Shown piece by piece: positions 31,012 through 61,856 of a stretch of DNA of 64,000 bases. The DNA is from Candidatus Aenigmatarchaeota archaeon (lineage in GTDB: Archaea; Aenigmatarchaeota; Aenigmatarchaeia; CG10238-14; SCSR01): the NCBI GenBank assembly GCA_018304615.1, contig JAGVVV010000009.1:45160-109159 (forward strand), given 5' to 3'. The notes under the pieces were generated by a model. It had not been told where the DNA came from. It saw nothing but the letters and a program-made list of their open reading frames with translations, and made no database searches. The position numbers and the translations under genes are program-made. Each line of letters begins with the position of its first letter. Position 1 is the first letter of the stretch.

Positions 31012-31129
31012 TGGGACAGGCGAGATTTGAACTCGCAACACCACGCTCTTCAGGCGTGTTCGAGCCAATTCATCATTGGTTGCTCTCCTTAACCTCATTA
31101 GAGCGACGATCGGGTTGAGCTACTGTCCC
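31012..31129 (-). tRNA. tRNA-Phe(GAA) with about 45 extra nt in the D-arm region (probably two non-canonical introns)
   Basis: GGGACAG-TA-GCTC...[62 nt where 17 are expected]...-CACGC-CTGAAGA-GCGTG-GTGTT-GCGAG-TTCAAAT-CTCGC-CTGTCCC-A; 118 nt; exact splice sites not resolved by hand. Confidence 0.7.
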
Positions 31130-42197: not shown

Positions 42198-42228
42198 TCT
42201 TTAATTGAACATAAGTGAATTTCAATTT

Positions 42229-46511: not shown

Positions 46512-46518
46512 ATTCTCA

Positions 46519-47592
46519 CTAATCGATTGGTCTGCATTCTTGCCTTGTCACATCAAAGCTATCCCAGAAACTCCAAACAAGTGGCTGCAAGCCTTTTGAT
46601 GAAGGTATGTTAAACTTGTTATCGGTGAGTTTGAAGTTGACCAAGACTCCGCCTAGACTGCTTCCTGTTTGTGCGGAGACGATTTTTCCACCCAGCGAAT
46701 CAAAAACATTTGTCTTCAAACCAGAAGCTGAAGTTTTTTCATAGCAGAGATTGTCAGCAAATGTAGATTTCTGGCATGGAGTATTCAAACATGCAACAGG
46801 ATTTGCAGTGTCAAGACATTTTATTTCATAAGAGCATTTCACATACTGGGGATCCTCTTTGAATAATTCTTCATAGTGTTTGCATACATTCTGGATTGCA
46901 ACTTCAATCTTCTGCGGCATTGATGTAGGACTGGTGCATTGATCTCTTATGGAAGAGAATATCACTCTGACTGGAAGATTATTTTTTGTATCGTCATAAA
47001 GTCTGTAATATATCCACCAGAACCTGTTATTTGTGTTGTCAACCGCCAAATCACCTGAATAGGTTACAGAAGCAGGACTTGTAACTGTAATCACTCCACC
47101 TTGAGTCGCAGTTGATTTGAACGACTCGCATCCTTGAGAACTTCTCTGGTTGCACGCATCCTTGCCATAATCGTAGATTCCATTACATTGATATGGAGAG
47201 GCGGTAACACCGAGCTGCGCAATCTGGCTGTCTTTCAAACCTTTAAAGTATGTCTGCAAGTAGACATTGGATGTGTTACTCATGGAAAAATGAACTTCAT
47301 TTGATTCTGGAGGAACTGGCTCGTTGTTGCAATACCAAAATGTTCTAGATGCCTGACTTCCACCATTTGCTGCTACCTCAAGTGATGCGCTTTGAGTAGA
47401 GTAAGACAAATCCTGACTCAAGAATCTCTTCGCAGTTTCGAGTCTGGTAATTGCAATGTCTTTTGGTCCGACATTTGAAATTGTGCCGGCGAACTGAGTA
47501 CCGGATGAAAGATTGTTATAAGACCATACAGAGACCATCAAGACTCCAATCAGTGCAATGATTACGATTGTGGCATATGCGATGCCTTTCAT
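46519..47592 (-). CDS. type IV pilin-like protein, large ectodomain (hypothetical)
   Basis: 357 aa; MKG-IAYATIVIIALIGVLMVSVW leader; multiple Cys pairs. Confidence 0.55.
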   Translation of the reverse strand: MKGIAYATIVIIALIGVLMVSVWSYNNLSSGTQFAGTISNVGPKDIAITRLETAKRFLSQDLSYSTQSASLEVAANGGSQASRTFWYCNNEPVPPESNEVHFSMSNTSNVYLQTYFKGLKDSQIAQLGVTASPYQCNGIYDYGKDACNQRSSQGCESFKSTATQGGVITVTSPASVTYSGDLAVDNTNNRFWWIYYRLYDDTKNNLPVRVIFSSIRDQCTSPTSMPQKIEVAIQNVCKHYEELFKEDPQYVKCSYEIKCLDTANPVACLNTPCQKSTFADNLCYEKTSASGLKTNVFDSLGGKIVSAQTGSSLGGVLVNFKLTDNKFNIPSSKGLQPLVWSFWDSFDVTRQECRPID

Positions 47593-47629
47593 AAAATAAG
47601 TATGGTTCGAGGGGGGTATAAAAGTTTAC

Positions 47630-48910
47630 TTAGGCCCATTCATAGATATTTGCTGTGGTGTATACTCCTGCAACTGCGACTGGTACAGGAAAGTTGACAG
47701 CCCTGATGTTTTTTGTTCTCTGTGCAATTTCATATCCTGCTCTGTTCCCTGCTTCAAGAGCTCCAGTTCTTTCTGGAGTCACTTTCTCGATTACATCCTT
47801 AAGGGCGCTAGCCAGGTCGGATCCTTTGCTCAGATCGTACATCTGCCCTCCGGTTGCAGTCGCCATTTCTGTCATATATTGCGTGACAAGTCCGCTGCAC
47901 TGGCATTGTAATTGCGTAAAGTCATGATATGTTTGACCTTGCCAGATTACGCAGATGTTACATTTAGCGTCGCAGTTTGAACACGATGGGCAGCATCCAC
48001 TCCCTGGATCGGCCTTTATCGGAAATGCAAAAACTCCGTTCTTTTTAGCGACTTCGATTCCTCTGAGAAGGCTGTTGTGCTGTTCGACGTAGCTGCTCGG
48101 AGTGCTCGCACAACATCTTGGATTGCCTGTGTCAAGTCCGCATTCACTGCCTTCAGGAACTTCATCAGAAATTGGGATGACCACTCTCACGCTGAATTTC
48201 TGCCAGCCTTCAATAGGACCTGCTTCAATTGCGCATGCAGTTCCATGTCCCCAATCTTCGGAAGGATCTCCTCGCCTCTTGTCTTCGCATTGAAGTCCTC
48301 CAATGTTAGAACATCTCAGATACTGAGATTGAGGGAACTTGTCGCAAGAGATGACATAAGGTTGGCTGGGATTAGAACCTATTCCGCAACAAGGACTGCC
48401 GCCTTCGAGCAAATAAATCGTTGCAGTCACTCTTTTGCCTGCAGCTCTAAGGTCACTTATCAAACCGGGCAAAACTTTTCTGAGATTCTCAACGTCATCA
48501 CACAAACTTGAGGAAGTGTCTTGAATGAAAATAATTTGGATTGCAGCTTCAATCTTCGGATAGGGAACTCTCATATACCAGTGGTCTTTCCCATAAAGAG
48601 CATCAAGTCTCCAAGTGATTTCCTGAGGAACATCCACGTAACTGATTGAAGGTCCGAAATCTATCGTGTCATTTCCGATGTATGCAGCGATCCCTACCAA
48701 CTCTTGTAGAGATTTTCCACTCTTTGATTCTGTCATTGAAAAAAGTGCGTTAGCGCCAGCACTCACTCCTTCCCTCTCGTGTCTTTCAGCTAGGGTGAGA
48801 ATGGTTTTTCCAAAACTTCCTATGCTTGTAGTCCTCAAAAGAATAATCACTGCGATTATTGCTATAGCAAGCATGACAAAACCCATGACCTCAAATATTT
48901 GCCCTTTCAT
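47630..48910 (-). CDS. type IV pilin-like protein with von Willebrand factor A domain
   Basis: 426 aa; MKG-QIFEVMGFVMLAIAIIAVIILL leader; MIDAS IIFIQDTSSSL (DxSxS) and VVIPISDEVPEG; Cys-rich insertions. Confidence 0.6.
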   Translation of the reverse strand: MKGQIFEVMGFVMLAIAIIAVIILLRTTSIGSFGKTILTLAERHEREGVSAGANALFSMTESKSGKSLQELVGIAAYIGNDTIDFGPSISYVDVPQEITWRLDALYGKDHWYMRVPYPKIEAAIQIIFIQDTSSSLCDDVENLRKVLPGLISDLRAAGKRVTATIYLLEGGSPCCGIGSNPSQPYVISCDKFPQSQYLRCSNIGGLQCEDKRRGDPSEDWGHGTACAIEAGPIEGWQKFSVRVVIPISDEVPEGSECGLDTGNPRCCASTPSSYVEQHNSLLRGIEVAKKNGVFAFPIKADPGSGCCPSCSNCDAKCNICVIWQGQTYHDFTQLQCQCSGLVTQYMTEMATATGGQMYDLSKGSDLASALKDVIEKVTPERTGALEAGNRAGYEIAQRTKNIRAVNFPVPVAVAGVYTTANIYEWA

Positions 48911-49659
48911 TTTACCACAAGACTCCCCTGCAAATAACTTATCGTCCAGACATAATCACCTGGTGCTTTGATGTCCTTGATAGCAAGAGGGCAAGACATG
49001 ACTCTGCACGATTTTTGTTTAGTTCCGCTGCAGAGCTCGTTTGTAGATTTGTAATAGCTGAGTGGGAAACTTGTGTGTATGCCAAATGATGTGGCATTCA
49101 GTCTCCCGTTTCTAAACAAGTCGCACGACCAGTCAAGAGCGCCTGCTATGTTCTCCAACTCTCCGTTGACAAGATAAATGTAAATGTTGCCTGGAATGAC
49201 ATCCTTGTCAGAATATCTGATTGCAATTGGCATAGAGGTGTTGATATCATTCTTGAAAGCAGGACCTGTTGAAAAATTCTTGGCACCGAAAGACCAAATC
49301 TTAGATGGAGTCTGTGGATCCTGATTAATCTCGACGACAGTCGCCCTCCATCCGAAATTATAATTTCTCGCACAAGGAGGTTCGATATTTTTGAAATCGG
49401 AGGCCATCTGTTTCAATTTTGTCACGTCGACGATGTTGGCATAGAGTCCATCAGTCGCAGGAGATCTGTAAGCAAGGCAATCTTCCGAATTTGCAAGAAT
49501 GAGAAGGATGTTCGTGGAAGTGCTGATCAGGTTCAGAGTTTTTGAAGCCTGCCTCTCCTTTGCGATGGATTCAGAAATCGAGCTATACAAAAACAAGAGC
49601 AATGCTATTGTCATCACCAAAGAAATCGGTTTCAAAATGTAAGACATCTGGCCTTTCAT
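48907..49659 (-). CDS. type IV pilin-like protein (hypothetical)
   Basis: 250 aa; MKG-QMSYILKPISLVMTIALLLFLY leader; ATGA overlap with the downstream gene. Confidence 0.55.
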   Translation of the reverse strand: MKGQMSYILKPISLVMTIALLLFLYSSISESIAKERQASKTLNLISTSTNILLILANSEDCLAYRSPATDGLYANIVDVTKLKQMASDFKNIEPPCARNYNFGWRATVVEINQDPQTPSKIWSFGAKNFSTGPAFKNDINTSMPIAIRYSDKDVIPGNIYIYLVNGELENIAGALDWSCDLFRNGRLNATSFGIHTSFPLSYYKSTNELCSGTKQKSCRVMSCPLAIKDIKAPGDYVWTISYLQGSLVVK

Positions 49660-51648
49660 TCAAGCACCTGGTATGATACATTTGAAACCTTGAGGCACGC
49701 CTGCCAATGCGCACAGTTCGTCAATATGGCAATCTACATTCGTCTGCTTGCATCTAGAGTTTGAAGGATTCCAATTTCCGCCGCACCTCACACCTGGTGG
49801 AACTGCGTAACCACTTTTTCCGTCAGAACTTATTCCATCGTTTAGAGCGTACAATCCCTTGTCATTCCACCAAATGCACATGACATCACAGTCTGTTTGA
49901 TCTAGGAAAGTCACAAATTGGCCTGTTGCATCAAGTCTCAACCATCTGTTGGCGTTTCCATTGCATTCATTCGGCCACAATCCGGGTTGGTTTTGCAAAT
50001 CGGGATCACATTTCATTACTACGAATGCATGCCTTCTACAATCTCCGGCAATGTCAAAAGTTGTGTAAGCGTCCTTTGCAGGAACACCGAGAGTCCTTAG
50101 GACTGACAACACTGCAGAGGCATGGTCTGCACAGTAACCAACTCCGCAGCATTCGCTTCCGATATAAGTTGCTCTGTCGTCAGGACATTCTGACAAACAG
50201 CAACAAGTGTAATCCTCTCTTTTGTAGTTCTCGTTTGCGGATATCGTGAAACCAGCAGGCTGAAGTCTTTGGCAGGCTCTGATGTATCTACTCGCATCGA
50301 AAGCCCAGCCTTCAGGTGTGCGAGCCCTTATTGTTTTTATTACTTCGTTGATATCCCAATTTCTTCTGTCCAAGAATTTCTTAACTTCTGAGTCGCAGAT
50401 GGAGATTGTTCCAGGCTGCCAGCTTGGCTTGTCTCCTGTTCTGGTACCTCCTTGGAAAACATCTTCATAGCAAGCGGATGAAGTGAAAGGTCCGCCTGTC
50501 TGGCATGATGGTTGTGTTGCTTGACCGCAATCCTGAGGACAAGTGTAATTTGTCTCCCATTTTGTCTTGTATCCTTCAGGCCACCCGTATTGTGTGCCGG
50601 GTCTCCACTCGCACCTCCCATTACCACAGCAGTCTTTCCTGCAAATATTATCGCCAGGGCATGCCACAAGTCCAGCACAGCAAGGGTCTGATCCTGTTTG
50701 ATTTTCTTTTGTACAAACATTCTGGCATGCACGTGAATCTGGACAGTCAGGGTCGCAGATGTTTTTTGAATCTTTACAATCCAAGTCGCAGATACCGTCT
50801 TTTAATAAAGTTATTTTAGAAGGAGTGGAAATTGTAGGAGTTGAGGCTGTTGTGTTTATACAACCTGTGTAACATTTTCCGTCTTGTACTTTGTATTTGA
50901 CTCCATCTTTATCTATTATTTTACTCTTGGCAGGGCAGTCTGGATCGCAGTAACCTGTTTTGCTATTGGGATATTGGTCGTAACAATCTAAATCACAAAC
51001 TCCTTTTTTCAATCCTTCGCAATCAGGACTGCAAATGCCATCTCTTTCATTTTCTTTAATGCAATTCTTCTCGCACACACCTGTCTGGTATCCTCTATAG
51101 CAATTTTTGTCACAGATGCCTGGATTTTCTTTTGCGCAGAATGGGTTGCATACGCCAGTGGAGTTGTCATTCACACATTTTGTATCACACTTATTTTCCA
51201 CATTGCATTCGGGATCGCAAATGTTATCATTGGTATTGCAGGAACATGTCTTGTTGCTGATATAGACGCTGTTGTCATTGACGGTCTTGACTATGCAGAG
51301 CGACTTGGGATTTTCAAATGAATAGGGACCGGATTTAATGAGGCTTGAAAAGAATGTTCTGACTGAATTCTTGTCGCCGTATTTTATTATGAGTGCTTTC
51401 TGATCGATGTCTAATCTGAATCTGAGACCTTTTGGAATGTCTATTTGCATTTGAATATTTCCTGCTGTTGCTGCAGCCCTATCTATAGAAGTTGAAACGT
51501 CTCTACCGAGAGCCTCGAAAACAGATTCGTAAGTTCGCTGGTTCTGTTGAGAGAAGACAAGTTGAACTACAAGGACGATGAGAATGAAAGAGATGAGAAT
51601 GGCTGTAGTCTCCAACATTGTCTCGGACAGTATTACAGACCCTTTCAC
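49660..51648 (-). CDS. type IV pilin-like leader fused to G-(I/V)-C-D-x-x-C repeat array and transglutaminase-like cysteine protease core
   Basis: 662 aa; GTG start with GAGGT 6 nt upstream; MKG-SVILSETMLETTAILISFILIVLVV; about 12 repeats (GVCNPFC, GICDKNC, GVCEKNC, GICSPDC, GVCDLDC, GYCDPDC, GICDLDC, NICDPDC...); C-terminal GYCADHASAVLSVLRTLGVPA ... RRHAFVVM ... WLRLDATG (Cys-His-Asp). Confidence 0.65.
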   Translation of the reverse strand: MKGSVILSETMLETTAILISFILIVLVVQLVFSQQNQRTYESVFEALGRDVSTSIDRAAATAGNIQMQIDIPKGLRFRLDIDQKALIIKYGDKNSVRTFFSSLIKSGPYSFENPKSLCIVKTVNDNSVYISNKTCSCNTNDNICDPECNVENKCDTKCVNDNSTGVCNPFCAKENPGICDKNCYRGYQTGVCEKNCIKENERDGICSPDCEGLKKGVCDLDCYDQYPNSKTGYCDPDCPAKSKIIDKDGVKYKVQDGKCYTGCINTTASTPTISTPSKITLLKDGICDLDCKDSKNICDPDCPDSRACQNVCTKENQTGSDPCCAGLVACPGDNICRKDCCGNGRCEWRPGTQYGWPEGYKTKWETNYTCPQDCGQATQPSCQTGGPFTSSACYEDVFQGGTRTGDKPSWQPGTISICDSEVKKFLDRRNWDINEVIKTIRARTPEGWAFDASRYIRACQRLQPAGFTISANENYKREDYTCCCLSECPDDRATYIGSECCGVGYCADHASAVLSVLRTLGVPAKDAYTTFDIAGDCRRHAFVVMKCDPDLQNQPGLWPNECNGNANRWLRLDATGQFVTFLDQTDCDVMCIWWNDKGLYALNDGISSDGKSGYAVPPGVRCGGNWNPSNSRCKQTNVDCHIDELCALAGVPQGFKCIIPGA

Positions 51649-51695
51649 AGCACGACCTCTTAGATAATTTTGATTGTGGTATATAATATTGGTGC

Positions 51696-52256
51696 CTATT
51701 GAGAAGTTGTAGTAGTCGTTATCTTTTCTCCGATAGAACGTTTTGCAGTTATGTCAACGAAACTGAAATCTGTCTTGTTTATAAGAACTTCATATTTGAA
51801 GACTGGCGAACCTTCTGATAGTCTCGCAATAAGTGAGGCAAGATCGGATTTTTGAGATGGGGTTCCGAAGTAAGTCATATTCACACTGCAAGAGAGAGGT
51901 TCACATCGAGGTATGTTTTCCTCAGCGAATTTAATGCAAAAGAATTTTCCAATGGCCATTGAACCAGAAGAGATGAGCACAGAAACTTTTGCTGGCGGTG
52001 GTTCGTCGCTTACATTCGAAATGTAAATAGCTGTCACTGATTCTGGCAGTGCGATCTTGTATCTGTAGATTTCTCCGACTCCTCCTTTGAAGCAGACGTT
52101 TTTGACTTTGAAATAAATGTCGGCGAAGTTCTCAATAGCTATTTCTTTCTGAGTAGAGCTGAGCTGGTCTAGAACAAGTTTGGATCCAAAAACTATTACA
52201 ATAATGGCAAGTACGACACTCATCACGATCCAAATCCATGCAGCTACACCCTTCAT
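51696..52256 (-). CDS. type IV pilin-like protein (candidate structural pilin; paralogue of the N-half of 56315-57466)
   Basis: 186 aa; MKG-VAAWIWIVMSVVLAIIVIVFG leader; KVKNVCFKGGVG...ALPESVTAIY...GKFFCIKF parallels TVNALCEGRPG...VFPDSVSIVY...GKFACLKF. Confidence 0.55.
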   Translation of the reverse strand: MKGVAAWIWIVMSVVLAIIVIVFGSKLVLDQLSSTQKEIAIENFADIYFKVKNVCFKGGVGEIYRYKIALPESVTAIYISNVSDEPPPAKVSVLISSGSMAIGKFFCIKFAEENIPRCEPLSCSVNMTYFGTPSQKSDLASLIARLSEGSPVFKYEVLINKTDFSFVDITAKRSIGEKITTTTTSQ

Positions 52257-52294
52257 ATGTATAATTTTGTTGCAGATTGTTATAACTTTAGAAT

Positions 52295-52756
52295 CTAAGG
52301 TTCAGGCGTGCCGACGAAAATGGCCCTTTCATACCCATCATAAGAAATCGTGAAGTTCTTATCACTAGTAATATACCACTTGACTTTGTCCTGATTTGGA
52401 TACCTCTTCGAAACACAGGAACTACAATCTCCAGATGTGCAATTGTTATTAGGAATGTTCTCGCAGTTTAGAGATTTGGTGACGTCAAATTCTGTAATCG
52501 TTGAATTAGAAATTATGTTAATGTTCTTGCAAACAGAAGATTTGGGGCTGAGACCATTTCTGTTTTGATCCCAACATGTCACTATGTAATTAGCAATAGT
52601 AGACGCGATTTTCTGTTTGTCTCCAGAAAGATTCACCTCAGAAGAATTTTTGAATCCACCGGTGAGTTGGAAGACTAGGAGTAAGAGAATCAATGCGACT
52701 GCTATTCCGGCAATAATCTGAAAAAATTCGGGGATTGTTTCGAGTATGCCTTTCAT
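52295..52756 (-). CDS. small type IV pilin-like protein, CW-motif family
   Basis: 153 aa; MKG-ILETIPEFFQIIAGIAVALILLLLVF; IANYIVTCWDQ; C-terminal ISYDGYERAIFVG. Confidence 0.55.
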   Translation of the reverse strand: MKGILETIPEFFQIIAGIAVALILLLLVFQLTGGFKNSSEVNLSGDKQKIASTIANYIVTCWDQNRNGLSPKSSVCKNINIISNSTITEFDVTKSLNCENIPNNNCTSGDCSSCVSKRYPNQDKVKWYITSDKNFTISYDGYERAIFVGTPEP

Positions 52757-52757
52757 C

Positions 52758-53309
52758 TCAAGACCATTTCTGTTTTAGATTTTCATATTGATGGGAATTT
52801 TTGCGCCTCAGCAAAAGAAAGACCAAAAGAATAACTGCGACAATCAAAATAGCTAGATAAATGTAGATTGAATAAGATGATGATGTCTGAATAGGTTTTG
52901 ATACGCCAGGTAAATCTTTTGAGAAAATTATTTTTGACTCGTGTAATAACTGCAATTTTGTCGCGCCTTCAGGTGCCGGAAGTCTGAAAACCAAATTCTT
53001 GCTGGTATCATTAAATTCAACGGGTTTTCCTGAAGTGGATATCCCATGACCACTGAAACCTATTAGAAATTCTTTCTCGAATAATACTGAATTGGAGTCT
53101 GATACCAGTCTTATCTTATATCCAGTTCCTAACAAGTTCTCTACGTTCGGAGTTCCTTGGGCTTCTCTAAGTTCATTCAGTTGAACTGAATCGTTCTTGT
53201 AAACGACGATGTCTAGAAGGAATATTTTCCCATAATCTTGGGCTGAGATAATCTGAAAAGAAATGAGAATGAAGATTATGAAAACACTTAATTTTTTCAT
53301 TGTCCACAA
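52758..53309 (-). CDS. type I membrane protein (Sec signal plus C-terminal TM), hypothetical
   Basis: 183 aa; MKKLSVFIIFILISFQIISAQD signal; C-terminal IYIYLAILIVAVILLVFLLLRRKN anchor. Confidence 0.5.
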   Translation of the reverse strand: MWTMKKLSVFIIFILISFQIISAQDYGKIFLLDIVVYKNDSVQLNELREAQGTPNVENLLGTGYKIRLVSDSNSVLFEKEFLIGFSGHGISTSGKPVEFNDTSKNLVFRLPAPEGATKLQLLHESKIIFSKDLPGVSKPIQTSSSYSIYIYLAILIVAVILLVFLLLRRKNSHQYENLKQKWS

Positions 53310-55261
53310 CCATCCATATAATCTTTTAGTTCATGCTCTTTTAACCATTTGTAGCTTCCGGCAGAATATTTTGTTTGTGCACCATAGCACATCATCCAGC
53401 CATCCTGATAACTTCCTGTGCATGCCCCTACGTTTGGATTCGGACAGTAACTGTCTTGCCCCACTCCCCTACATGCACATCCAATCATTGCGCAATAGTT
53501 TGGATTAGAAAGTGGAGAAGGATCACATTCATGACACAAGTTCTGAGAATGACCGATCTCGTGCAAAACAGTATTTGTATAGCTCGCCCAAGTGACGCTC
53601 TGGTCTGAAGGGATGTCTCTGGCTGCACCTATACACATACCACCGCTGCCGTCACATGATATCGGACCACGCTGGAAAAGACCGACGACCTTATTGTAAA
53701 CAGTTGCATATTTGCTTTTTTTGGCACAAGCTAAGACATTGTCATTGCAAAGGGGCCAAAGATAAGGACACGAAACACTACATTCGCCTGGTTCGACGAA
53801 CACTGCTTCTACTCTGCTCTGCGGATTTCGACATTCACTCAACGGACTGAGTTTAATAAATAAGTCGACGACTTTTTGAGCACTGGCTTTGAAGGATGCT
53901 GCCTGACCAGAGCTGTAATCTATAGGAACAAATAGTAATTTGTAAGTTTTTCTAAAGAAGCAATCCGTCCCGTTCCAGATTTTTCCTTCGGGACAACAAT
54001 GGCCTGAAGTGTCGCATTGAAGATTCGTCGCACATTGGCTGTTGCAGTTACATTTGCTCTTCTCTTTCAAATCTTTATTGACAGTACATCCGAGTGAGTC
54101 AGCTTTTCCATCACTTGGGCAGCAGACAAAATTGAAATCGCTGCAAGTTGTTCCTGCTCCAAGGCAATCTTTACTGCAAGACTGGCAGTTTTCACTGGCA
54201 GTTGTATTGCAGATTCCATTCCCACAACATTCAGTTCTTGGACCCTGAGCTCCTGATGGGCAATCTGGATCATTGTCGAATACGGTACAGGAAGGCGAAC
54301 ACCAGCTGTTGCAAGTCTTATCACAAACGAAACATTTCGAATCGGTGGTTCCGTTGGGATTTCCAGGATAAACAATTCCGTTGCAGTCAGGATCGCAGAT
54401 ATTTTTATCTTTTATACAATCCTGATCGCAAATTCCGTCTTTCACGCCGTTTGAATTTGGGTCACAAATACCTCCATACTTCTGCCTGAAAGTCTGGTCA
54501 GTCAACTTCAACCATTCGCAACCGGGGTCATAGGCTTTCAAAGGATTCAATCTATCTGAATAACAATCTGGATTGCATTTTCCATCAGAAATTCTTTTAT
54601 TGGAATCATCTATGTCAACCACTCCATTGTTGTTCGAATCTATGCAAGCAAGATTGCAAGGAATTCCATGGCGCTGGCCATCGTCACACACAGGATCGCA
54701 TACTCTCTTCAAAATGCAACTTGCATCACAGATGTTGTCTGTCGGATCGCAACCCTTGATGGCTCTGGCTATGAAAGTGTCTGGAGAAGGAGATCCCTGC
54801 TGCCACATGTCTACGAAATCAAAAGTTTTTAGGGGATAGTCACCTTGGTTTCCTATAATGATCAGTGCTCCCACACCGAGAGGCTTGGTCAGATTGTAAA
54901 AAATTAAATTTCCTCCGCCTGCGATACCTGAGAGTTTACTTATCCTGATTATGTCTTCTTGGGTCAACGAGAATGTGAGAGAAACATTTGCGTGAACGTC
55001 TCCGCACTGACCTTGATAGACAGCCTGAAGAAGTGTCTGGAAGTCTTGTATTGAAATTTCCTTACCAGCATATGCCTCGCAAATGTTGTAAGGGGATGTT
55101 TGAATGACAGTACTTACAAATTTCTTGAACACATTTCCAAGTTGAGTTGGAATCTGTGAGCCCAGAGTTAATCCTTGAGATTGTATGATGAGAATTGAAA
55201 CGATGATGATTACAAGAAACAGGGCTATAATTCCAATCAAGTTAATTGTATCAGCATCCAC
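53297..55261 (-). CDS. signal-anchored cysteine-rich protein with G-I-C-D-x-x-C repeats, EF-hand-like loop and metzincin-spaced zinc protease motif
   Basis: 654 aa; GTG start overlapping the upstream TAG by 1 nt; MDADTINLIGIIALFLVIIIVSILII; DSNNNGVVDIDD; GICDPNS/GICDQDC/NICDPDC; VLHEIGHSQNLCH (HExxHxxxxxH). Confidence 0.6.
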   Translation of the reverse strand: MDADTINLIGIIALFLVIIIVSILIIQSQGLTLGSQIPTQLGNVFKKFVSTVIQTSPYNICEAYAGKEISIQDFQTLLQAVYQGQCGDVHANVSLTFSLTQEDIIRISKLSGIAGGGNLIFYNLTKPLGVGALIIIGNQGDYPLKTFDFVDMWQQGSPSPDTFIARAIKGCDPTDNICDASCILKRVCDPVCDDGQRHGIPCNLACIDSNNNGVVDIDDSNKRISDGKCNPDCYSDRLNPLKAYDPGCEWLKLTDQTFRQKYGGICDPNSNGVKDGICDQDCIKDKNICDPDCNGIVYPGNPNGTTDSKCFVCDKTCNSWCSPSCTVFDNDPDCPSGAQGPRTECCGNGICNTTASENCQSCSKDCLGAGTTCSDFNFVCCPSDGKADSLGCTVNKDLKEKSKCNCNSQCATNLQCDTSGHCCPEGKIWNGTDCFFRKTYKLLFVPIDYSSGQAASFKASAQKVVDLFIKLSPLSECRNPQSRVEAVFVEPGECSVSCPYLWPLCNDNVLACAKKSKYATVYNKVVGLFQRGPISCDGSGGMCIGAARDIPSDQSVTWASYTNTVLHEIGHSQNLCHECDPSPLSNPNYCAMIGCACRGVGQDSYCPNPNVGACTGSYQDGWMMCYGAQTKYSAGSYKWLKEHELKDYMDGCGQ

Positions 55262-55821
55262 TAGACGGCCACCTCGATTCTATGAAAGAAAGAATTGTAA
55301 TTTATGAAAACCGAAGTATCGTTTAAATTCACTCTTCCACCTGTCCAATAGATTTTATTTTGTTTTCCGCAATCATAGGCTTGATTCTCCAAATCAAGCA
55401 AGTTGTTCTCAAGGAATGAGCAGTAACCTTTTGATTTGAGGACATCCGTTATTTCTTTCTCTCCGAACTCAGAAGGAACATTTTTAATCAGAATCTCGTA
55501 GCACTGAAAAGATATTCCTACTTTCCCACTGTTGGTTTTTTCCTTCCAGCACGTCCACACATAATCCGCAATCTTAACTCTCAAGTCTGAGCTTGAAGTA
55601 GGCCTTAAGATGACATTTTCTTTTGTAGGAGTGATGTTGCATTGAGATACAGAAGGTTTCAAAGATTGGGGTAGAGGGATTACAAGAATTATTTGATAGA
55701 GTTTGCAGATGGCTGGACCTGTGTAGTTGGGAAGAAACATGTTCATCGCGGTTAAGATTATCCAAACTCCCACTAGTGCAATCAAAACATCTGCGACGAG
55801 CTTGAATGACATTCCTTTCAT
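55261..55821 (-). CDS. small type IV pilin-like protein, CW-motif family
   Basis: 186 aa; MKG-MSFKLVADVLIALVGVWIILTA; IADYVWTCWKE; C-terminal INYNSFFHRIEVAV. Confidence 0.55.
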   Translation of the reverse strand: MKGMSFKLVADVLIALVGVWIILTAMNMFLPNYTGPAICKLYQIILVIPLPQSLKPSVSQCNITPTKENVILRPTSSSDLRVKIADYVWTCWKEKTNSGKVGISFQCYEILIKNVPSEFGEKEITDVLKSKGYCSFLENNLLDLENQAYDCGKQNKIYWTGGRVNLNDTSVFINYNSFFHRIEVAV

Positions 55822-56276
55822 GGAGAGCTCACTATTATTTGGGGACCTAACTCTTTGAATTCTATCTTGACTATTTGGCTGTTGAAGTTTGCGGTTATCG
55901 AAGTTCTTTTCTTCACATCAGAAGGTAGGCTGCTCAGTATTGTGTTAGCATCTGCACTGAAGTATGGAGGTTTTCTGGCTAGCAACAAGTAACAAACCGT
56001 ATCCTTCTGATCTGGAACTGGAAGATTTGAGTTGCAGCTGTCACAGCTTTGAATATACGCGGAGATTTCAGAAGATATGAATGAATCCTTCTCAATCGGT
56101 TTCTTATCTGGACAATTGGCCTCACTTGGGCAATTGAAGAACTTGCAAAGGAATTTGTTTATCGAAGTCTGGATGTCCCTGGAGAAATTCAAAATCAAAC
56201 CTATAATGACTGCAACGGTTACAAGTAGAATGATTATTCTGAAAACAAACTCCAGCGCGAGAGCTGCTCCCTTCAT
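55818..56276 (-). CDS. small type IV pilin-like protein (related to the CW-motif family)
   Basis: 152 aa; MKG-AALALEFVFRIIILLVTVAVIIGLIL; ISAYIQSCDSC; C-terminal VKIEFKELGPQIIVSS. Confidence 0.55.
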   Translation of the reverse strand: MKGAALALEFVFRIIILLVTVAVIIGLILNFSRDIQTSINKFLCKFFNCPSEANCPDKKPIEKDSFISSEISAYIQSCDSCNSNLPVPDQKDTVCYLLLARKPPYFSADANTILSSLPSDVKKRTSITANFNSQIVKIEFKELGPQIIVSSP

Positions 56277-56314
56277 AATTTAACTAAGGATTTCTTATAA
56301 TAAATTAGAATAAC

Positions 56315-57466
56315 ATGAAAGGTATCGCTGTCTGGATATGGCTCATAGGCGGGATAATTGTCGGAATGATCATGTTTGTTCTTTTTTTCCAGTTGATGAG
56401 CTACCTGACACTTAGCAGGGCAAGGGAGGATGCAAGACAGAGTTTTGATGATTTAACCAGCACTGTCAATGCTCTGTGCGAGGGTAGACCTGGTATTCAG
56501 TCCTCGAAGAAGTTTGTCTTTCCAGATTCTGTATCAATAGTTTATTCAACTTCAGATCCGAAGACGTATGTAGAGAAAAATAATCGTACTTATGGAAAGT
56601 TTGCTTGCCTTAAATTCCAAAAGGAGCAATTTTGCGAAGGAGTGAGTTGTGATTTAGAGTTTCACCCAATAAAGGCGGAGGAAAACCTTTTAGGAGTAGT
56701 AGACACCTTGTTAGGAAGATCAAGCTACCAAGAATATCTGGTGAAGTTGACCAAGACAGAATGTGGGGTGTCTGCTTTGAACGTTGGAGAAAACCCATCT
56801 TCAACATGTGGGCTATGTAAAACTGTATCTTTAATCAGATGCCAGACGTCAGTTATCTTGGGGCTTGTAAGTAGAGACGTCCTTGTCATAACAGACATGT
56901 CAAGACTGAAAGAATGTTGCACTATAGATAACAGTATAATCAAGTTACTCAATAATGCGGCAGGTTATCTTGGTGGAAAAAAGATTTTGATAGTTTGGGA
57001 ACTTAACCAGTATGATCCTTCCTCTCAATCTAAATTGCCTATAATAAATTCATTGAGCAGTTCTGGATTCATGGTCGGTTTCCTGAGGCACACAACTCAA
57101 TTGACCGATGACATTTTGAAAAATTACGATCAGCTCTGGCTTTTCCGACCAGGCTGGTGCCTCCCTCAAATAGTTGAATGTGGTGGGTCAGTAACTTGGA
57201 GCAATTCAGAAATAAATGCAATTGGAAACTTTCAAAATCGTGGAGGAAAGATTTTCTTGTTTACTGACACTTCTGCTGGAAATGTCCAAGACCAAGACAT
57301 GGTGAACAAGATACTAAAACAGCTGAACACGACTGCGACTGTCGATGGAACAACTGTGTGCGGACGCGGAGATCAAACCGTCATGACAACAGATATTACA
57401 AAGAACTCTGTAACTAAGGGTTTGGACAACTTTAACGTCACTGCTGCGACGAGAATAATTTGTTAG
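56315..57466 (+). CDS. type IV pilin-like protein with extra C-terminal alpha/beta domain; only plus-strand gene in the locus
   Basis: 383 aa; MKG-IAVWIWLIGGIIVGMIMFVLFF; N-half paralogous to 51696-52256; C-half KKILIVWELNQYD...YDQLWLFRPGW...GGKIFLFTDT (weak ThuA/GATase1-like impression). Confidence 0.55.
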   Translation: MKGIAVWIWLIGGIIVGMIMFVLFFQLMSYLTLSRAREDARQSFDDLTSTVNALCEGRPGIQSSKKFVFPDSVSIVYSTSDPKTYVEKNNRTYGKFACLKFQKEQFCEGVSCDLEFHPIKAEENLLGVVDTLLGRSSYQEYLVKLTKTECGVSALNVGENPSSTCGLCKTVSLIRCQTSVILGLVSRDVLVITDMSRLKECCTIDNSIIKLLNNAAGYLGGKKILIVWELNQYDPSSQSKLPIINSLSSSGFMVGFLRHTTQLTDDILKNYDQLWLFRPGWCLPQIVECGGSVTWSNSEINAIGNFQNRGGKIFLFTDTSAGNVQDQDMVNKILKQLNTTATVDGTTVCGRGDQTVMTTDITKNSVTKGLDNFNVTAATRIIC

Positions 57467-58044
57467 GCAATTATCACAATCTTGTTTTGTACAGTATCGT
57501 ACTTAATCAAAATCAGCCGCTGATCGTTTATTACATTTCCTGAAACTTGCCAGACTATGTTGTCACTCCCTCCGCAGTTCCCAGAATAGTCGGAGAGTTG
57601 TCCAGTTGCATTGATAATCTTGGAATTTTCAAGGACGTCGCAGCCATTTTCTCTTTCAATGATCTGTGTCATGTATGACTCTGTAACAGGTCCGAATGAA
57701 TCCTCTACAAACAGGTTGTAGCAGACAGTAGAATTAGTAACCTTAATTCTTTGGCCCTGCCAACATGAAATTGCAAAAGCAGCAATCAATCTTGCAAACT
57801 CTTCTTTGTTCTCTGCTGATTTGTCGCATCCCTGTCTGCAGATGGAAATTGATGTAACAGGCTTGTTAAGTCCTTTACATAAATCTGAAGTTTGCTTCAA
57901 TGTGTTCTCATAAAAGTAGCAGAAAGTCTTTTTCATTGTATCTGAGAACGGACCGACTAAGAACATTAGTAAGACGATGATTCCGACAATACCTACAGTG
58001 AGGTATCCGATTGTGTTTAATTCCAGACCTTTATGTCCCAACAT
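57463..58044 (-). CDS. small type IV pilin-like protein, CW-motif family
   Basis: 193 aa; MLGHKG-LELNTIGYLTVGIVGIIVLLMFLV; IAAFAISCWQG; C-terminal IKYDTVQNKIVIIA; overlaps the platform gene by 14 nt. Confidence 0.55.
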   Translation of the reverse strand: MLGHKGLELNTIGYLTVGIVGIIVLLMFLVGPFSDTMKKTFCYFYENTLKQTSDLCKGLNKPVTSISICRQGCDKSAENKEEFARLIAAFAISCWQGQRIKVTNSTVCYNLFVEDSFGPVTESYMTQIIERENGCDVLENSKIINATGQLSDYSGNCGGSDNIVWQVSGNVINDQRLILIKYDTVQNKIVIIA

Positions 58045-60193
58045 TTGAAATTCCTCCTAGGGTATCTGTGTCGAAAAAGCTTCCAGAGATTACTATCCCG
58101 ACAACAAGGACAATCGAATAGAAGATTAAGGCCATCATCACGCCCTTTCCTATCAACACATTTCTTGTAGTCTTGTCGAAACCATTCTTGATTCCGTTCA
58201 AGAAGTATGATAGGATGACAACTATTTCGAGCATGTAGATGCCGACAACCAATTGGAAGACCGTGGCAGGAATGACTTTTTCTATGCTAGCAAAACTTAG
58301 AATCTGGCCGAACTGGACGGTGCCGCCATGGATGAAAGAGCCTGACAAATTGAACGTTTCTTCGATGCTCTTCATGAATTCAGATAATTTTCCCAAAAGT
58401 CTGATTATGAAGGTAGCCATACCAGCTACGATACCTGTTATGAATGGGGCGATGAAACTTGACTGCAGTTGGATTGCAGCTGAAACTTCATCGAGCAGTT
58501 CTTTCAGAAGATTCTCAACATTCTTTGTTTTCATCAGGAAGGAAGAGATTGTTTTCGATGCAGTGGAGAGGATGATGGAAGACTTTTCAGCGGCAGAGAC
58601 GATTATCGACATGACATCTTTTATCAGGAACGATGGATACCTTCTCATCACTCCATATTGCTCGTCAAAGATTGCCCTTTTTAGTGTCATGCCGAGTTCG
58701 CGAATGTTCTTCTGGATGTTAAGGAAAAATATGAACATGGGCGAGTCTTGAAGCTTGTACTGCCTGTATTTGTCGAGGGTTTCTTCAAGAGCCGTTTCTA
58801 TAGGAACGCCAGACGAGAGAACGTCTCCCAAACGGAAAAGTCCTATCTGGAATTCGTCCTCTATGAGCTTGATGTCGTTTCTTATCTTCAGCCTCTGATA
58901 GCTGGAACCGTAAAAGTAAATCACCAATGCGAGACCCATCCCCCAGATACCGCTAAGACTGTAGAATGTGAATGAAAGAGCGTTGTCATACTCAGCTTTC
59001 ATTTCAAATCTCCATCTGTCAGCGAAATCAGGAAGGTCTTTAACAGCAAAAAATTTTGATGTCAGGACGTATAGATAGGTGAAAGTTGGGATGAGCAAAA
59101 AGAACATGATTATGAGTGAGATCGGCAATATAGGAACTAGATATTTTTTTCCTGAGATTTTCAAAATCAATTTTCCTTGAGGAGGGAGATCAGGATGATG
59201 AGAAATGTCTGGATATGCAAAGGCTCCAGGACGTTTTGCAATTGTCCTTCTAAGATAAAAATAATTCAGAAGGGGAAGGACGACAATATATCCGAAAATA
59301 AGGAATCCCGGGTTTAGGTCTTCGCTCAAGAATATAGCAATCATCGGGAACATGACCAAACCCATGATCGGAAATGTAATTCCCATTGTGTGAATAAGCA
59401 TTATCGGAGTTCTCAGTTCTCTGGAGTAGTCTTTCATTTTTTCATAAGTAGAATCAAGTACGAAATTAAGAGTCTTGTCAAGAGTCTTCTCCCTTGCCTG
59501 CTCGTTGGTCTCGAGAGCGAGGGCTTGGATGAGGTTCATGGCTTCGACGAATTCCTTGTCCCACAGCAGCCATTTTTCAATCTTAGAGCCGATTGCCTGA
59601 TTAATCGTATAGTATTTCCTTATTTCTACGTCCCAGATTATTTTTTTCAGATCTTTTCCTATCGGTCCTGAGGCATGTGCGGCTGCGAATCTTATCGCTC
59701 CTTCAACTTGGGGATTGAGTCTGAGATAGATTACCATGTATAGAATTACCTTAACTGTCTCGTCATTCGCTTTGATTTTTGTTACTGCAGACAAGTAGGC
59801 AGGATAGGTGTAGAACAGATAAGCGAAGATGAAAGGGAAGAAAGGTAAGAAATATCCCAAGAACGGAAATACTAAACTCAGAGGGATGGAAATTCCTAAA
59901 CCGATAATTATTGTGAATACTGTGAAAGAGAGGACCTCGCTAGGCGTCACATCGATGTCTGTGGTGAGCAAATGTTTCGACAAAGAGTTCGAAATGCTCT
60001 GTGGGGCTTGCATTTTCAGAGTTTTGCCCGCAAATTTGCATCCACTTACGAAGAAGCCTGTGAATCCGCCTTCGTCTTCAGGATGCTCCTCTTGAATGAA
60101 CGTCTTATAATCTTGAGAAATCCACTGCTTTGCCTCGCTTTCTACTTGCTCTTCAGAAGGTATTTTCTTGAAGAAACGGTCCAAGAAACTCAT
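58031..60193 (-). CDS. polytopic membrane platform protein, FlaJ/TadC/PilC-like (two T2SSF-type repeats)
   Basis: 720 aa; at least 9 TM; two cytoplasmic helical segments (AIRFAAAHASGPIGKDLKKIIWDVEIRKYYTINQAI... and RLGDVLSSGVPIETALEETLDKYRQ...), each followed by TM clusters, as in type IV filament platform proteins. Confidence 0.55.
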   Translation of the reverse strand: MSFLDRFFKKIPSEEQVESEAKQWISQDYKTFIQEEHPEDEGGFTGFFVSGCKFAGKTLKMQAPQSISNSLSKHLLTTDIDVTPSEVLSFTVFTIIIGLGISIPLSLVFPFLGYFLPFFPFIFAYLFYTYPAYLSAVTKIKANDETVKVILYMVIYLRLNPQVEGAIRFAAAHASGPIGKDLKKIIWDVEIRKYYTINQAIGSKIEKWLLWDKEFVEAMNLIQALALETNEQAREKTLDKTLNFVLDSTYEKMKDYSRELRTPIMLIHTMGITFPIMGLVMFPMIAIFLSEDLNPGFLIFGYIVVLPLLNYFYLRRTIAKRPGAFAYPDISHHPDLPPQGKLILKISGKKYLVPILPISLIIMFFLLIPTFTYLYVLTSKFFAVKDLPDFADRWRFEMKAEYDNALSFTFYSLSGIWGMGLALVIYFYGSSYQRLKIRNDIKLIEDEFQIGLFRLGDVLSSGVPIETALEETLDKYRQYKLQDSPMFIFFLNIQKNIRELGMTLKRAIFDEQYGVMRRYPSFLIKDVMSIIVSAAEKSSIILSTASKTISSFLMKTKNVENLLKELLDEVSAAIQLQSSFIAPFITGIVAGMATFIIRLLGKLSEFMKSIEETFNLSGSFIHGGTVQFGQILSFASIEKVIPATVFQLVVGIYMLEIVVILSYFLNGIKNGFDKTTRNVLIGKGVMMALIFYSIVLVVGIVISGSFFDTDTLGGISNVGT

Positions 60194-60247: not shown

Positions 60248-61537
60248 ATGGGTTATGATTGGTACCTTGATTTTGTTGATTTAAATTACAAGCCTTCCAA
60301 GACTGATGTTGTGTGTGAATTCAGAGTCGAGCCGGCCAAAGGGTTTTCAATGAAGGAGGCGGCAGGAAGGGTTGCAAGCGAATCTTCTGCTGGAACATGG
60401 ACAACGCTTTTCAATCTGCCAAAACGTGTGAGGAAGATAATGGCCATAGCATTTGACATAAGAGGCAATTTTGTCAAGGTGGCTTATCCAATTGAGCTTT
60501 GGGAACCTGGAAATGCTCCTCAGTTGCTAAGCGGTATAGCAGGAAATATTTTTGGGATGAAAGCATTAAAAGGTCTGAGGCTGATGGATGTCTCGCTCCC
60601 AAAGGAATATTTGAAACATTTCAAAGGTCCTAGTCATGGAGTGAAAGGAATAAGGAAAATGATGAAAATCAAAAAGAGGCCCATAACAGGAGCTGTGCCA
60701 AAGCCAAAGATTGGATACAGTGCCGCAGAGCATACAAAGATCGGTTACGAGACGTGGATGGGCGGTTTTGACATTGTCAAAGATGATGAGAACTTGACAT
60801 CCACTTCTTTCAACAAGTTTGAAGACAGAGCGAAGATGATGGCCAAAGCGAGGGAGAGGGCAGAGAAGCTCACTGGAGAAAGAAAATCAGCTTTCTTGAA
60901 TATCACAGGAGAAACTAAGGAGATGATCAGAAAAGCCACACTTCTTCATGATTTGGGATGGGAATTTGCGATGATTGATGTTGTTACATGTGGGACGGCT
61001 GCTGTTCATACACTGAGGGATGTGTGTGCAGATCTTAATTTGGCAATTCATGCTCACCGGGCGATGCATGCTGCTTTTGACAGGACACCAAATCATGGGA
61101 TGACTATGTATTTCCTTGGAAAAATAATGAGAATGATTGGTGTCGATGAAATACACGTAGGAACTGCTGTTGGAAAATTGGTGGGAACAAGATACGAAGT
61201 AAAGTATGTTGCAGATATGTTAAGAGAATCGCATGTAGGAAAAGATAAAAAAATTTTGGAACAGAAATGGTACCATATAAAACCGACGTTGCCTGTTTCA
61301 TCTGGCGGACTCCACCCAGGACTGATCCCTGAAGTCATGAAAATATTAGGAACAGAATGCGCTTTATTGGTAAGTGGGGGGATACATGGCCATTCCAAAG
61401 GGACTCGCCAGGGAGCCAAGGCTGCAATGCAAGCAATAGATGCGACCATGCGTGGGATATCGTTAAAAGATTATGCGAAGAAACATGTAGAACTCAAGCT
61501 TGCATTGGAAAAATGGGGAACTGCTACACCGATTTAG
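60248..61537 (+). CDS. rbcL: ribulose-1,5-bisphosphate carboxylase, form III large subunit
   Basis: 429 aa; GAVPKPKIGYS, GGFDIVKDDENL (carbamylated Lys), HAHRAMHAA, SSGGLHPG motifs. Confidence 0.9.
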   Translation: MGYDWYLDFVDLNYKPSKTDVVCEFRVEPAKGFSMKEAAGRVASESSAGTWTTLFNLPKRVRKIMAIAFDIRGNFVKVAYPIELWEPGNAPQLLSGIAGNIFGMKALKGLRLMDVSLPKEYLKHFKGPSHGVKGIRKMMKIKKRPITGAVPKPKIGYSAAEHTKIGYETWMGGFDIVKDDENLTSTSFNKFEDRAKMMAKARERAEKLTGERKSAFLNITGETKEMIRKATLLHDLGWEFAMIDVVTCGTAAVHTLRDVCADLNLAIHAHRAMHAAFDRTPNHGMTMYFLGKIMRMIGVDEIHVGTAVGKLVGTRYEVKYVADMLRESHVGKDKKILEQKWYHIKPTLPVSSGGLHPGLIPEVMKILGTECALLVSGGIHGHSKGTRQGAKAAMQAIDATMRGISLKDYAKKHVELKLALEKWGTATPI

Positions 61538-61544
61538 TGGTTTG

Positions 61545-61856
61545 ATGCGAACTGGAATCTATGTTGTCATCATTCTTCTGTTTTCTATCGCTGCAGGTGT
61601 ATTTTTGGTAGACTTTTTGAAACAAAAAAATCCTATTATAGAAATTCCTGCTGAAAATTCCTGCTCATCTGATGGCGAGTGTGATTGGGGGATTACTAAC
61701 TGCTGTCCAGAAAATGCAGGTGCCAAATGGAATTGTTTGAATGCAGACAATCGACAAGCAAGAACTTGCCCGTCATCGGTGATATGTCCGCAAGTTATTT
61801 CTCCAAAACCAAATAAAACATGTGTATGTATCAAAGGAATGTGCGAAACTAAATGA
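61545..61856 (+). CDS. small membrane-anchored cysteine-rich protein (10 Cys)
   Basis: ATG at 61545 (MRTGIYVVIILLFSIAAGVFLV) preferred over the track start at 61500, which overlaps rbcL; ectodomain CSSDGECDWGITNCCPEN...CLN...TCPSSVICP...TCVCIKGMC; stop overlaps the deoA ATG (ATGA). Confidence 0.5.
   Translation: MRTGIYVVIILLFSIAAGVFLVDFLKQKNPIIEIPAENSCSSDGECDWGITNCCPENAGAKWNCLNADNRQARTCPSSVICPQVISPKPNKTCVCIKGMCETK

Follow-up and report, generated by a model that had tools for sequence, protein, structure and literature searches.

The 64,000-nucleotide stretch analysed here (positions 45,160 to 109,159 of contig JAGVVV010000009.1, assembly GCA_018304615.1; hereafter the window, in whose numbering positions are given) contains an open reading frame (ORF) of 654 aa at 53297–55261 on the minus strand, defined by ORF calling and an NCBI match, whose product is the subject of this study. 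The translation is identical to MBS3055361.1, annotated as 'hypothetical protein J4452_02640' in a Candidatus Aenigmarchaeota metagenome-assembled genome. Archaeal features of the window include an archaeal signal recognition particle RNA and tRNA genes of up to 118 nt, which are probably intron-containing. The ORF starts with GTG (55261–55259), which shares 1 base with the TAG stop of the ORF upstream, and direct reading of the sequence reveals a GAGGTG Shine–Dalgarno-like site 8 nt 5' of this codon (55270–55275, minus strand). Because an in-frame stop lies 7 codons upstream of the GTG, with no alternative start codon between them, the ORF cannot encode an MKG leader.

A first-pass annotation, made from the letters of the DNA alone, had described the product as a Cys-repeat protein with a hydrophobic anchor lacking KG, an EF-hand- or dockerin-type loop, and a metzincin-spaced zinc-binding motif with Asn in place of the usual Gly, and had proposed that it is a Zn endopeptidase. 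Each string it quoted could be located in the translation: the repeats GICDPNS, GICDQDC, NICDPDC, KCNPDC and VCDPVC, the segment CCGNGICN...ENCQSCSKDC (beginning at aa 345), the loop DSNNNGVVDIDD (aa 208–219), the zinc motif HEIGHSQNLCHE (aa 567–578), and the anchor (aa 6–26), which carries no leader. The protein contains 56 Cys residues, 38 of them within aa 171–434.

Profile searches, a structural model and Foldseek comparisons indicate a metzincin-type catalytic domain in the C-terminal ~220 aa (aa 436–654; 53300–53956, minus strand), referred to below as the head. Its zinc-binding motif, H567-E568-I-G-H571-S-Q-N574-L-C-H577-E578 (53528–53563, minus strand), identified by motif and alignment, is followed by a candidate Met-turn, W622-M-M624-C-Y626 (53384–53398, minus strand), identified by alignment and model, and then by a C-terminal helix (aa 634–644 in the model). 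Single-sequence searches of Pfam, NCBIfam and the PDB gave sub-threshold matches only, and family profiles were therefore built. In Pfam, Reprolysin_5 was matched at E 7e-4 (20.3 bits) with the whole protein and at 9.5e-5 with the domain, against a cutoff of 27 bits; in the PDB, the matrix metalloproteinases MMP-8 and MMP-12 were matched at E ~0.05, around the HExxH.

The catalytic motif is strongly conserved. In an alignment of 19 full-length homologues, H567, E568, G570 and H571 are invariant, Gly at position 574 and Glu at position 578 are each present in at least 90% of the sequences, and at position 577, 4 sequences have His and 15 have Asp. A search of 1.84 billion proteins with a profile of the C-terminal domain revealed a family of 465 cluster representatives at E ≤ 1e-3 (159 at E ≤ 1e-10), in which the head is usually the C-terminal domain of proteins of ~200–1400 aa; shorter matches look like fragments. 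HExxHx5[H/D] is present in 132/145 family representatives, with Gly at motif position +7 in 118. A model-based alignment of 168 family sequences showed the same pattern, with H in 165, E in 164, G in 164 and H in 165 at the motif columns, Gly at +7 in 150 and L in 159, and with Asp (89), His (67) or Glu (5) as the third ligand. The column of M624 contains Met in 102 of 136 aligned sequences, with I, V or L just before it in 116. Asn at +7, as in N574, occurs in 5/168 family members. The first-pass annotation was correct about this substitution, which is an accepted variant of the metzincin consensus HExxHxxG/NxxH/D and occurs in the lower pappalysins (PMC12237041).

The predicted fold points in the same direction. 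The head-family profile, searched against PDB sequences, matched adamalysins, archaemetzincin, TACE, snapalysin, serralysins, MMPs, ulilysin and the M64-like protein 3p1v, and a Pfam scan of 16 family members matched metzincin families only, none convincingly above cutoff. An AlphaFold2 model of the head, built from a 16-sequence alignment, had a predicted local distance difference test score (pLDDT) of 82.3 and a predicted template modelling score (pTM) of 0.83. Its elements run in the canonical order, with strand, backing helix, strand, helix, three strands, HExxH active-site helix, irregular lower subdomain and C-terminal helix. Foldseek comparison of the model with the PDB gave 74 matches at E ≤ 1e-3, and the best 50 of the 74 were all metzincins, the top matches being ADAMTS-4/5, ADAM33, fragilysin, archaemetzincin and BF3526/3p1v (E 5e-6 to 3e-4), with snake-venom enzymes also among the 50. 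From the motif, its conservation and the predicted fold, we infer that the head is a metzincin-type zinc peptidase domain, in which H567, H571 and H577 would be the zinc ligands, E568 the general base, and M624 the Met-turn residue beneath the metal. The proposal of a Zn endopeptidase is thus supported by the retention of HExxH in homologues and the wider family, by a zincin fold predicted around it, and by a Met-turn downstream of the third His.

None of the named metzincin families fits the head, whose closest, though remote, resemblance is to M64 (igalysin)-like and adamalysin-like domains. The nearest relatives of the head family appear, from sequence comparison, to be the igalysins (MEROPS M64; T. 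ramosa IgAse; PDB 3P1V, 4DF9/9QDI), which belong to the same metzincin clan. The Asp-type majority of the head family reads HEMGHTFGLCDE.Y (third-ligand Asp, then Glu and often Tyr) with a C-I-M-C Met-turn, close to the igalysin motif 'HEFGHSFGGLADEY', and the IgAse Met-turn CIMR resembles the C-I-M-x of these Asp-type relatives. The head-family profile aligns with the igalysin-like 3p1v over ~130 positions and, at an hhalign probability of 95.5% (E 1.5e-8), with the head of P0043, a stalk homologue from Woesearchaeota in which the head is annotated as M64, and BF3526 and 3p1v are among the Foldseek matches of lowest root-mean-square deviation. Igalysins, however, are defined by HExxHxxxGxxD, with an extra residue before the Gly (PMC12237041). 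The canonical spacing HExxHxxGxx(H/D) is kept throughout the head family, the third ligand here is His, and no Pfam Peptidase_M64 match was found, so membership of M64 was rejected; the domains also differ in size (269–313 aa in igalysins, ~220 aa in the head). The comparisons do support a remote kinship with igalysins, but because the residue that defines them is missing, we treat the head as representing a metzincin family of its own, as yet unannotated, whose third ligands are a mix of His and Asp.

The adamalysins/reprolysins (M12B; ADAM, ADAMTS and snake-venom metalloproteinases) gave the best Pfam match (Reprolysin_5), the best PDB-sequence match (4j4m, E 4.5e-4) and the best Foldseek matches (ADAMTS-4/5, ADAM33), and share with the head a disulfide-rich catalytic domain and an HExxHxxGxxH-type motif. 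Assignment to M12B was nevertheless rejected, because Reprolysin_5 scored 20.3–23.1 bits, below the cutoff of 27, and H577 is followed by Glu rather than Asp. A further difference is that no pro-domain with a cysteine switch was recognised in the 654-aa protein, and TM-scores are ~0.5. Archaemetzincins (M54) are likewise archaeal metzincins with Cys-rich lower subdomains, and archaemetzincin 2x7m was matched by the profile at E 0.0019 and by Foldseek at E 7e-5. They are cytosolic, with Cys directly after the third His and a Cys4 zinc finger, whereas the head would form the tip of a membrane-anchored surface protein; M54 was rejected on account of the Glu after the third His, the lack of an M54 Pfam match and the N-terminal membrane anchor. 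Astacins (M12A; HExxHxxGxxHE, SxMHY Met-turn) are resembled in the Glu after the third His and the Tyr two residues past the Met (MMCY), but no Astacin model was matched at E ≤ 1, and this family was also rejected.

Ahead of the head lies a conserved scaffold, seen in an alignment of 44 homologues and in an AlphaFold model of aa 1–436 (pLDDT 82.8). A hydrophobic helix at aa 6–26 (55184–55246, minus strand; sequence, model and alignment), preceded by the acidic pentapeptide MDADT, is followed by a conserved α/β N-domain at aa 57–170 (54752–55093, minus strand; alignment and model), which is modelled at pLDDT > 90 and for which neither a PDB fold match nor a Pfam match was found. The model begins with a long helix (aa 4–33, continued at 39–52), and its Cys-rich region is mostly irregular. 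The alignment places a Cys-repeat stalk of CDxxC/GICDPxxNG repeats, with invariant Cys and Asp, at aa 171–342 (54236–54751, minus strand). Nearly all of the 39 positions invariant in the 44 homologues are Cys or Asp of these repeats. The stalk is followed by a junction module at aa 343–434 (CCGNGxC...ENCxxCxxDC...CxCxxQC...HCCPEGKxWNGTxC; 53960–54235, minus strand; alignment), the last conserved block ahead of the variable head, and conservation across the 44 sequences stops at C434 (...HCCPEGKxWNGTxC). Knottin-like Foldseek matches to the junction module had a probability of ~0.35 or less and were not used.

Within the stalk, alignment and model show an EF-hand/dockerin-like 12-residue loop, DSNNNGVVDIDD (54605–54640, minus strand), present in a single copy. 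It is a DxDxDGxIxxxD/E-type loop entering a helix, with D or N at positions 1, 3, 5, 9 and 12 in 37–42 of the 44 homologues and I or V at position 8 in 44/44. In the model, a short helix (aa 204–207) precedes the loop and the exiting helix starts at loop position 10. EF-hands and dockerins have paired loops, and a Pfam scan of the 654-aa protein found neither family at E ≤ 1. The modelled geometry would fit one Ca2+ site.

A second Cys-repeat protein of the window (49660–51648, minus strand), identified as a paralogue by Pfam, NCBI annotation and alignment, carries a transglutaminase-like head. It aligns with the 654-aa protein at 29% identity over 235 aa (E 3e-9), in the Cys-repeat region only; the N-terminal domains do not align. 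The first-pass idea that the two are built on one scaffold therefore holds for the CDxxC repeat stalk and fails for the N-terminal domain. When a profile of the N-domain was compared with the other ORFs of the locus, their hydrophobic helices alone were matched, and descent of the N-domain from the same source as the small MKG proteins is therefore unsupported.

The head is variable among orthologues that share this scaffold. About half of the 44 homologues align only with the first ~62–68% of the 654-aa query (aa 1–~434), and the alternative heads they carry are Peptidase_C25, S8, Transglut_core, M64 and C1, the transglutaminase-like, M64 and papain heads being found on more distant scaffold homologues. 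Eight loci from different samples share a gene order, consisting of a type II secretion system F (T2SS-F) protein, small ORFs, a slot with a variable head, three small ORFs, a large transglutaminase-like protein and further ORFs. The slot occupied by the 654-aa gene contains a His-type metzincin head in the window and in locus L008, an Asp-type metzincin head in L001, L005 and L006, a C25 head in L002/L003 and L009, and an S8 head in L007. The second large slot is stable: in the window and in 6/7 other loci it gave a transglutaminase-like match, which in most cases lay close to the Pfam cutoff or below it. In every locus that extends far enough on that side (window, L001, L002/L003, L005 and L007), a type III RuBisCO gene adjoins the T2SS-F gene.

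Identity along the protein reflects this mosaic structure. Compared with the 654-aa protein, homologues P0003, P0004 and P0005 are 72–78% identical in the N-domain and 63–69% in the stalk, and only 27–30% in the head; the corresponding values for P0002 are 50%, 50–57% and 60%. Homologue P0025 has a stalk like that of P0009 (mostly 75–100% identical in 40-column windows), and its last 233 aa are 100% identical to P0003, the switch occurring exactly at 'GKTWNGTSC'. At the DNA level, 1169 bp are shared at 97.9% identity between L005 (7261–8429) and L006 (7216–8384), and this segment extends ~440 bp into the gene downstream of the head. L005 and L006, which come from different JGI samples, are elsewhere 64–71% identical or unalignable, and the shared segment is therefore not a trivial assembly chimera. 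By sequence comparison, then, the head is a replaceable cassette, apparently exchanged by recombination at a junction motif (...CCPxGKxWNGTxC) on orthologous stalks. The suggestion in the first-pass annotation that catalytic heads are swapped within the locus was right as to swapping, which occurs between orthologues in one slot, and not as to its partners, which are not the paralogues of the window.

The same module recurs in another protein. An MKG-leader ORF of the window (56315–57466, plus strand; 383 aa) has a counterpart of 611 aa in L002 (7117–8952, minus strand), which begins with a near-identical N-terminal helix (MKGLSVWIWIIGG...) and continues with the Cys-rich junction module and a Peptidase_C25 head. 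A second protein, with a genuine MKG leader, thus combines the junction module with a C25 head, and because the window ORF is the shorter one, head gain or loss also touches a bona fide KG-leader protein.

To describe the occurrence of these proteins, we note that among GTDB species representatives the stalk family was present in 12 loci on 11 contigs, labelled Candidatus Aenigmatarchaeota (6), Nanohalarchaeota (1), Woesearchaeota (1) and 'uncultured archaeon' (4). In the wider head family, the members sampled go by the names 'hypothetical protein' or 'PKD repeat protein', and one of them is from Altiarchaeota. Domains of the head family mostly form the C-terminal part of DPANN-type surface proteins.

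The setting of the gene is reminiscent of a type IV-filament locus. A 720-aa polytopic membrane protein (58031–60193, minus strand) was identified by Pfam as a T2SS-F/TadC-like platform and is annotated by NCBI as 'type II secretion system F family protein'; its association with the slot of the 654-aa gene is conserved in the 8 loci. From the ORF list and a script, eleven ORFs with KG-type, class-III-like leaders were found at 45696–58044, on both strands. Ten of them begin with MKG (nine with a hydrophobic stretch directly after it, by script) and one with MLGHKG, and within the window they are confined to this locus. Class III (prepilin-like) signal peptides of archaea show this pattern. Type IV pilus loci consisting largely of unrecognisable 'dark-matter' pilins have been described in DPANN archaea (PMC6393860). 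A sub-threshold ComGD match (E 6.5e-5) was obtained for relative P0111.

The N-terminus of the 654-aa protein resembles that of these leader-bearing proteins. Its translation begins MDADTINLIG... and has no [KR]G leader, and it contains the ~20-residue hydrophobic stretch that opens a long N-terminal α-helix (helices 4–33 and 39–52 in the AlphaFold model). Residues 6–26 resemble the mature N-terminus of the MKG pilin-like proteins encoded in the same locus. A KG/RG leader is retained by the distant scaffold homologues P0043 (MQKKG|ATMTNFVLLIG), P0044 (MNKRG|GTITNFALIIG) and P0025 ((M)RG|AEKLEFDILAML), and at least 29/145 proteins bearing the same metzincin head start with MKG or x[KR]G and a hydrophobic helix. 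Because the N-terminus aligns with the post-cleavage part of these leader-bearing relatives, we read the 654-aa protein as probably derived from a modular pilin-like protein and now leaderless. Bacteria are known to have modular pilins, some of them with predicted peptidase modules (PMC8179133).

The gene is followed directly by an ORF (52758–53300, minus strand) whose sequence features indicate a small protein with a Sec-type signal peptide, ~120 aa and a C-terminal transmembrane anchor. Its ATG overlaps the TGA stop of the 654-aa ORF (ATGA), which suggests translational coupling, and the co-transfer seen in L005/L006 suggests a two-gene cassette, possibly of a protease and a cognate inhibitor or immunity factor. 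The C25-headed genes examined (3/3) are followed by a different family of small proteins (L002 6557–7126, minus strand; L002 12456–12974, plus strand; L009 7458–8000, plus strand), mutually 46–72% identical, with an N-terminal transmembrane segment, CGNGxC-type Cys-rich motifs and a C-terminal α/β domain. The metzincin, S8 and M64 loci have the signal-peptide/C-terminal-anchor type in common (with weak similarity for S8 and M64), and no Pfam domain was found in either type. Strict covariation of the downstream gene with the type of head was considered, and held only in part. No orphan head cassettes of other types are present within the window.

Taken together, we consider it probable that the 654-aa gene encodes a membrane-anchored surface protein of a DPANN archaeon, consisting of a stalk and an exchangeable metzincin head, which probably works with a type IV-filament-like apparatus. 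An uncleaved pilin-like helix would be followed by the α/β domain, a disulfide-rich stalk with one Ca2+-type loop, the Cys-rich junction and the metzincin endopeptidase, and proteolysis would be held away from the cell. The anchor and the 56 cysteines suggest an extracellular location. The likely targets would lie on a host or neighbour, as surface proteins or the S-layer, or be proteins of the environment; the adjacent filament-like apparatus would probably cooperate with the protein and may present it. Aenigmarchaeota are reported to lack amino-acid biosynthesis, to be probable symbionts and to have many extracellular peptidases (PMC8407114), which makes both host-surface attack and peptide scavenging plausible. 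The case is entirely computational, built on motifs, conservation, predicted fold, mosaicism and synteny, and from these we infer zinc binding, activity, extracellular location, filament association and substrate.

Several results weigh against this reading. The head reaches the curated threshold of no Pfam or NCBIfam model, its Foldseek TM-scores are only about 0.5 (0.4–0.6), and aa 581–604, between the third ligand and the Met-turn, are modelled at pLDDT < 50; the low TM-scores and this poorly modelled insert lead us to regard the domain as divergent. The protein itself lacks a [KR]G prepilin cleavage site and has no Pfam or NCBIfam pilin match, and Foldseek comparison of the model of aa 1–436 with the PDB found no pilin or other fold (best E 1.8). 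NCBIfam and Pfam scans of the small ORFs of the locus matched no pilin model, and neither a secretion ATPase nor a prepilin peptidase (A24) was found among the other large ORFs of the 64-kb window. Pilin heads are very divergent, and a missing fold or profile match is weak evidence.

The main alternative is an ordinary membrane-anchored ecto-protease whose helix is a Sec signal-anchor, which scavenges peptides for an amino-acid-auxotrophic DPANN cell, and whose pilin-rich setting is incidental or reflects co-regulation. The lack of a cleavage site, with none encodable upstream, the lack of a detectable pilin fold, the absence of an ATPase and a prepilin peptidase nearby, and the reported auxotrophy and extracellular peptidases of Aenigmarchaeota all favour it. 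An acidic N-terminus, however, is not what an N-in signal anchor usually has, and this one aligns with the sequence that follows the cleavage site in KG-leader relatives; in 8 loci the gene is found at the same place, flanked by MKG ORFs and beside the T2SS-F gene. Moreover, the neighbouring genuine MKG protein of L002 has the same junction module with a C25 head, and rapid head replacement is commoner in proteins of conflict or interaction than in housekeeping nutrition. We regard a nutritional ecto-protease as possible, if on balance improbable. That the head is instead a catalytically dead, metzincin-like binding domain (an adhesin), disabled by the Gly-to-Asn change and Cys-rich insertions, might be suggested by the rarity of Asn at +7 and by the poor modelling of aa 581–604. 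Asn at the Gly position is found in active metzincins, the lower pappalysins, and the closest head relative, P0002 (60% identical), has Gly with the rest of the motif the same; since H567, E568, H571, H577 and M624 are all intact, a dead enzyme seems very unlikely.

The exchange of heads also raises the question of whether the protein is a polymorphic-toxin-like, contact-dependent effector, in which an N-terminal delivery stalk carries C-terminal 'warheads' exchanged at a pre-toxin-like junction, and the downstream membrane protein is the cognate inhibitor or immunity factor. The conserved N-terminal part, variable head and sharp breakpoint at a conserved motif would be as expected, as would the ATGA overlap, the inclusion of ~440 bp of the downstream gene in the recently transferred cassette, and the different small protein family that follows the C25-headed genes. 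But the downstream family of the metzincin loci also follows S8 and M64 heads, with weak similarity, so that covariation is partial; the partner proteins have no recognisable inhibitor domain, the window has no orphan cassettes of other head types, and where polymorphic toxins typically carry nucleases or deaminases, the heads here are hydrolases of an extracellular type. An effector of this kind therefore appears unlikely. In the preferred reading, that of an anchored stalk with an exchangeable peptidase, replacement of the enzymatic tip between close relatives would be a signature of interaction-driven selection on a surface stalk.

The surface-protein locus spans 17 kb (43.0–60.2 kb) and is flanked by archaeal adenosine monophosphate (AMP)-salvage genes. 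On one side is an IF-2B-family protein, a candidate ribose-1,5-bisphosphate isomerase by family (42205–43053, plus strand), and on the other are the genes for type III RuBisCO (60248–61537, plus strand) and AMP phosphorylase (61853–63394, plus strand); the position of RuBisCO beside the T2SS-F gene is kept in several Aenigmarchaeota loci. At the edge of the locus, a Cys- and Thr-rich ORF of 817 aa with a TTG start (43050–45503, minus strand) gave no Pfam or NCBIfam match; it has repeated Cys modules (e.g. KGGNC[RK]TVC..GE.D.G...C) with poly-Thr linkers between them and probably encodes another surface protein. A 426-aa MKG-leader protein (47630–48910, minus strand), with an insignificant VWA-like NCBIfam match (E 0.077), might be a vWA-type modular pilin or adhesin. 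Glycoside-hydrolase-like genes occur in the same gene run in L001 (13055–14518; GH43/GH32) and L002 (14632–15687; faint GH88/GH127), and the locus may thus be collecting hydrolases besides proteases. Elsewhere in the window are a candidate S-layer protein of this archaeon (780 aa; 10611–12953, minus strand), in which an S_layer_C domain was matched at E 8e-14, and a LAGLIDADG-domain ORF (E 2e-12; 909–1940, minus strand). The long, probably intron-containing tRNA genes lie at 16127–16219 and 31012–31129, and ARAGORN and Rfam disagree on the number of tRNA genes in the window (3 vs 6).

A literature search found no description of either the head family or head replacement in an archaeal pilus-like locus. 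What appears new, as judged from sequences and models, is the divergent metzincin family, and metzincins, modular pilins and cassette-swapped surface proteins are known themes that would be combined here. The molecular basis of host attachment and resource extraction in DPANN archaea is largely unknown, and the locus offers concrete candidates, among them the 654-aa gene, which lies beside the only recognisable type IV-filament component of the region. Peptidase classification should benefit from an unannotated metzincin family that has at least 465 cluster representatives and in which the third ligand may be His or Asp, and a likely function can be assigned to a 'hypothetical protein' and its relatives. 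With the sharp junction motif and the recent transfer of a 1.17-kb cassette, the shuffling of domains among archaeal surface proteins could be studied in a natural setting.

Of the known systems, modular type IV pilins (e.g. S. sanguinis PilB/PilC) likewise carry a functional module on an N-terminal pilin-like helix and are encoded in type IV-filament loci, which the setting of the 654-aa gene resembles. A [KR]G leader accompanies the same metzincin head in many proteins, and the neighbouring MKG protein of L002 carries a C25 head. The modular pilins described are bacterial (PMC8179133), whereas the 654-aa protein is archaeal, lacks the leader and cleavage site, has a long Cys-repeat stalk between anchor and module, and shows no detectable pilin fold. 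Polymorphic toxin systems (CdiA, Rhs) are alike in their variable C-terminal domain, recombination at a junction motif and small gene directly downstream. They differ in that here the heads are hydrolases of secreted type, covariation of the downstream gene with the head is not clear, orphan cassettes are lacking from the window, and the delivery apparatus, if any, would be type IV-filament-like. More speculatively, and with considerable doubt, Aenigmarchaeota and some other DPANN archaea might possess a dedicated, type IV-filament-associated 'hydrolase-on-a-stalk' system, whose warheads would cut the surface layers of hosts or competitors. These metzincin, gingipain-like C25, subtilase, papain and transglutaminase-like warheads would be mounted on a rigid stalk, stabilised by disulfides and Ca2+ and held in the membrane by a leaderless pilin-like helix, and would pass from lineage to lineage as head-plus-partner cassettes at the conserved junction motif. 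If true, such a system would amount to an extracellular counterpart, in archaea, of polymorphic toxin systems, with host–symbiont arms races as its driving force.

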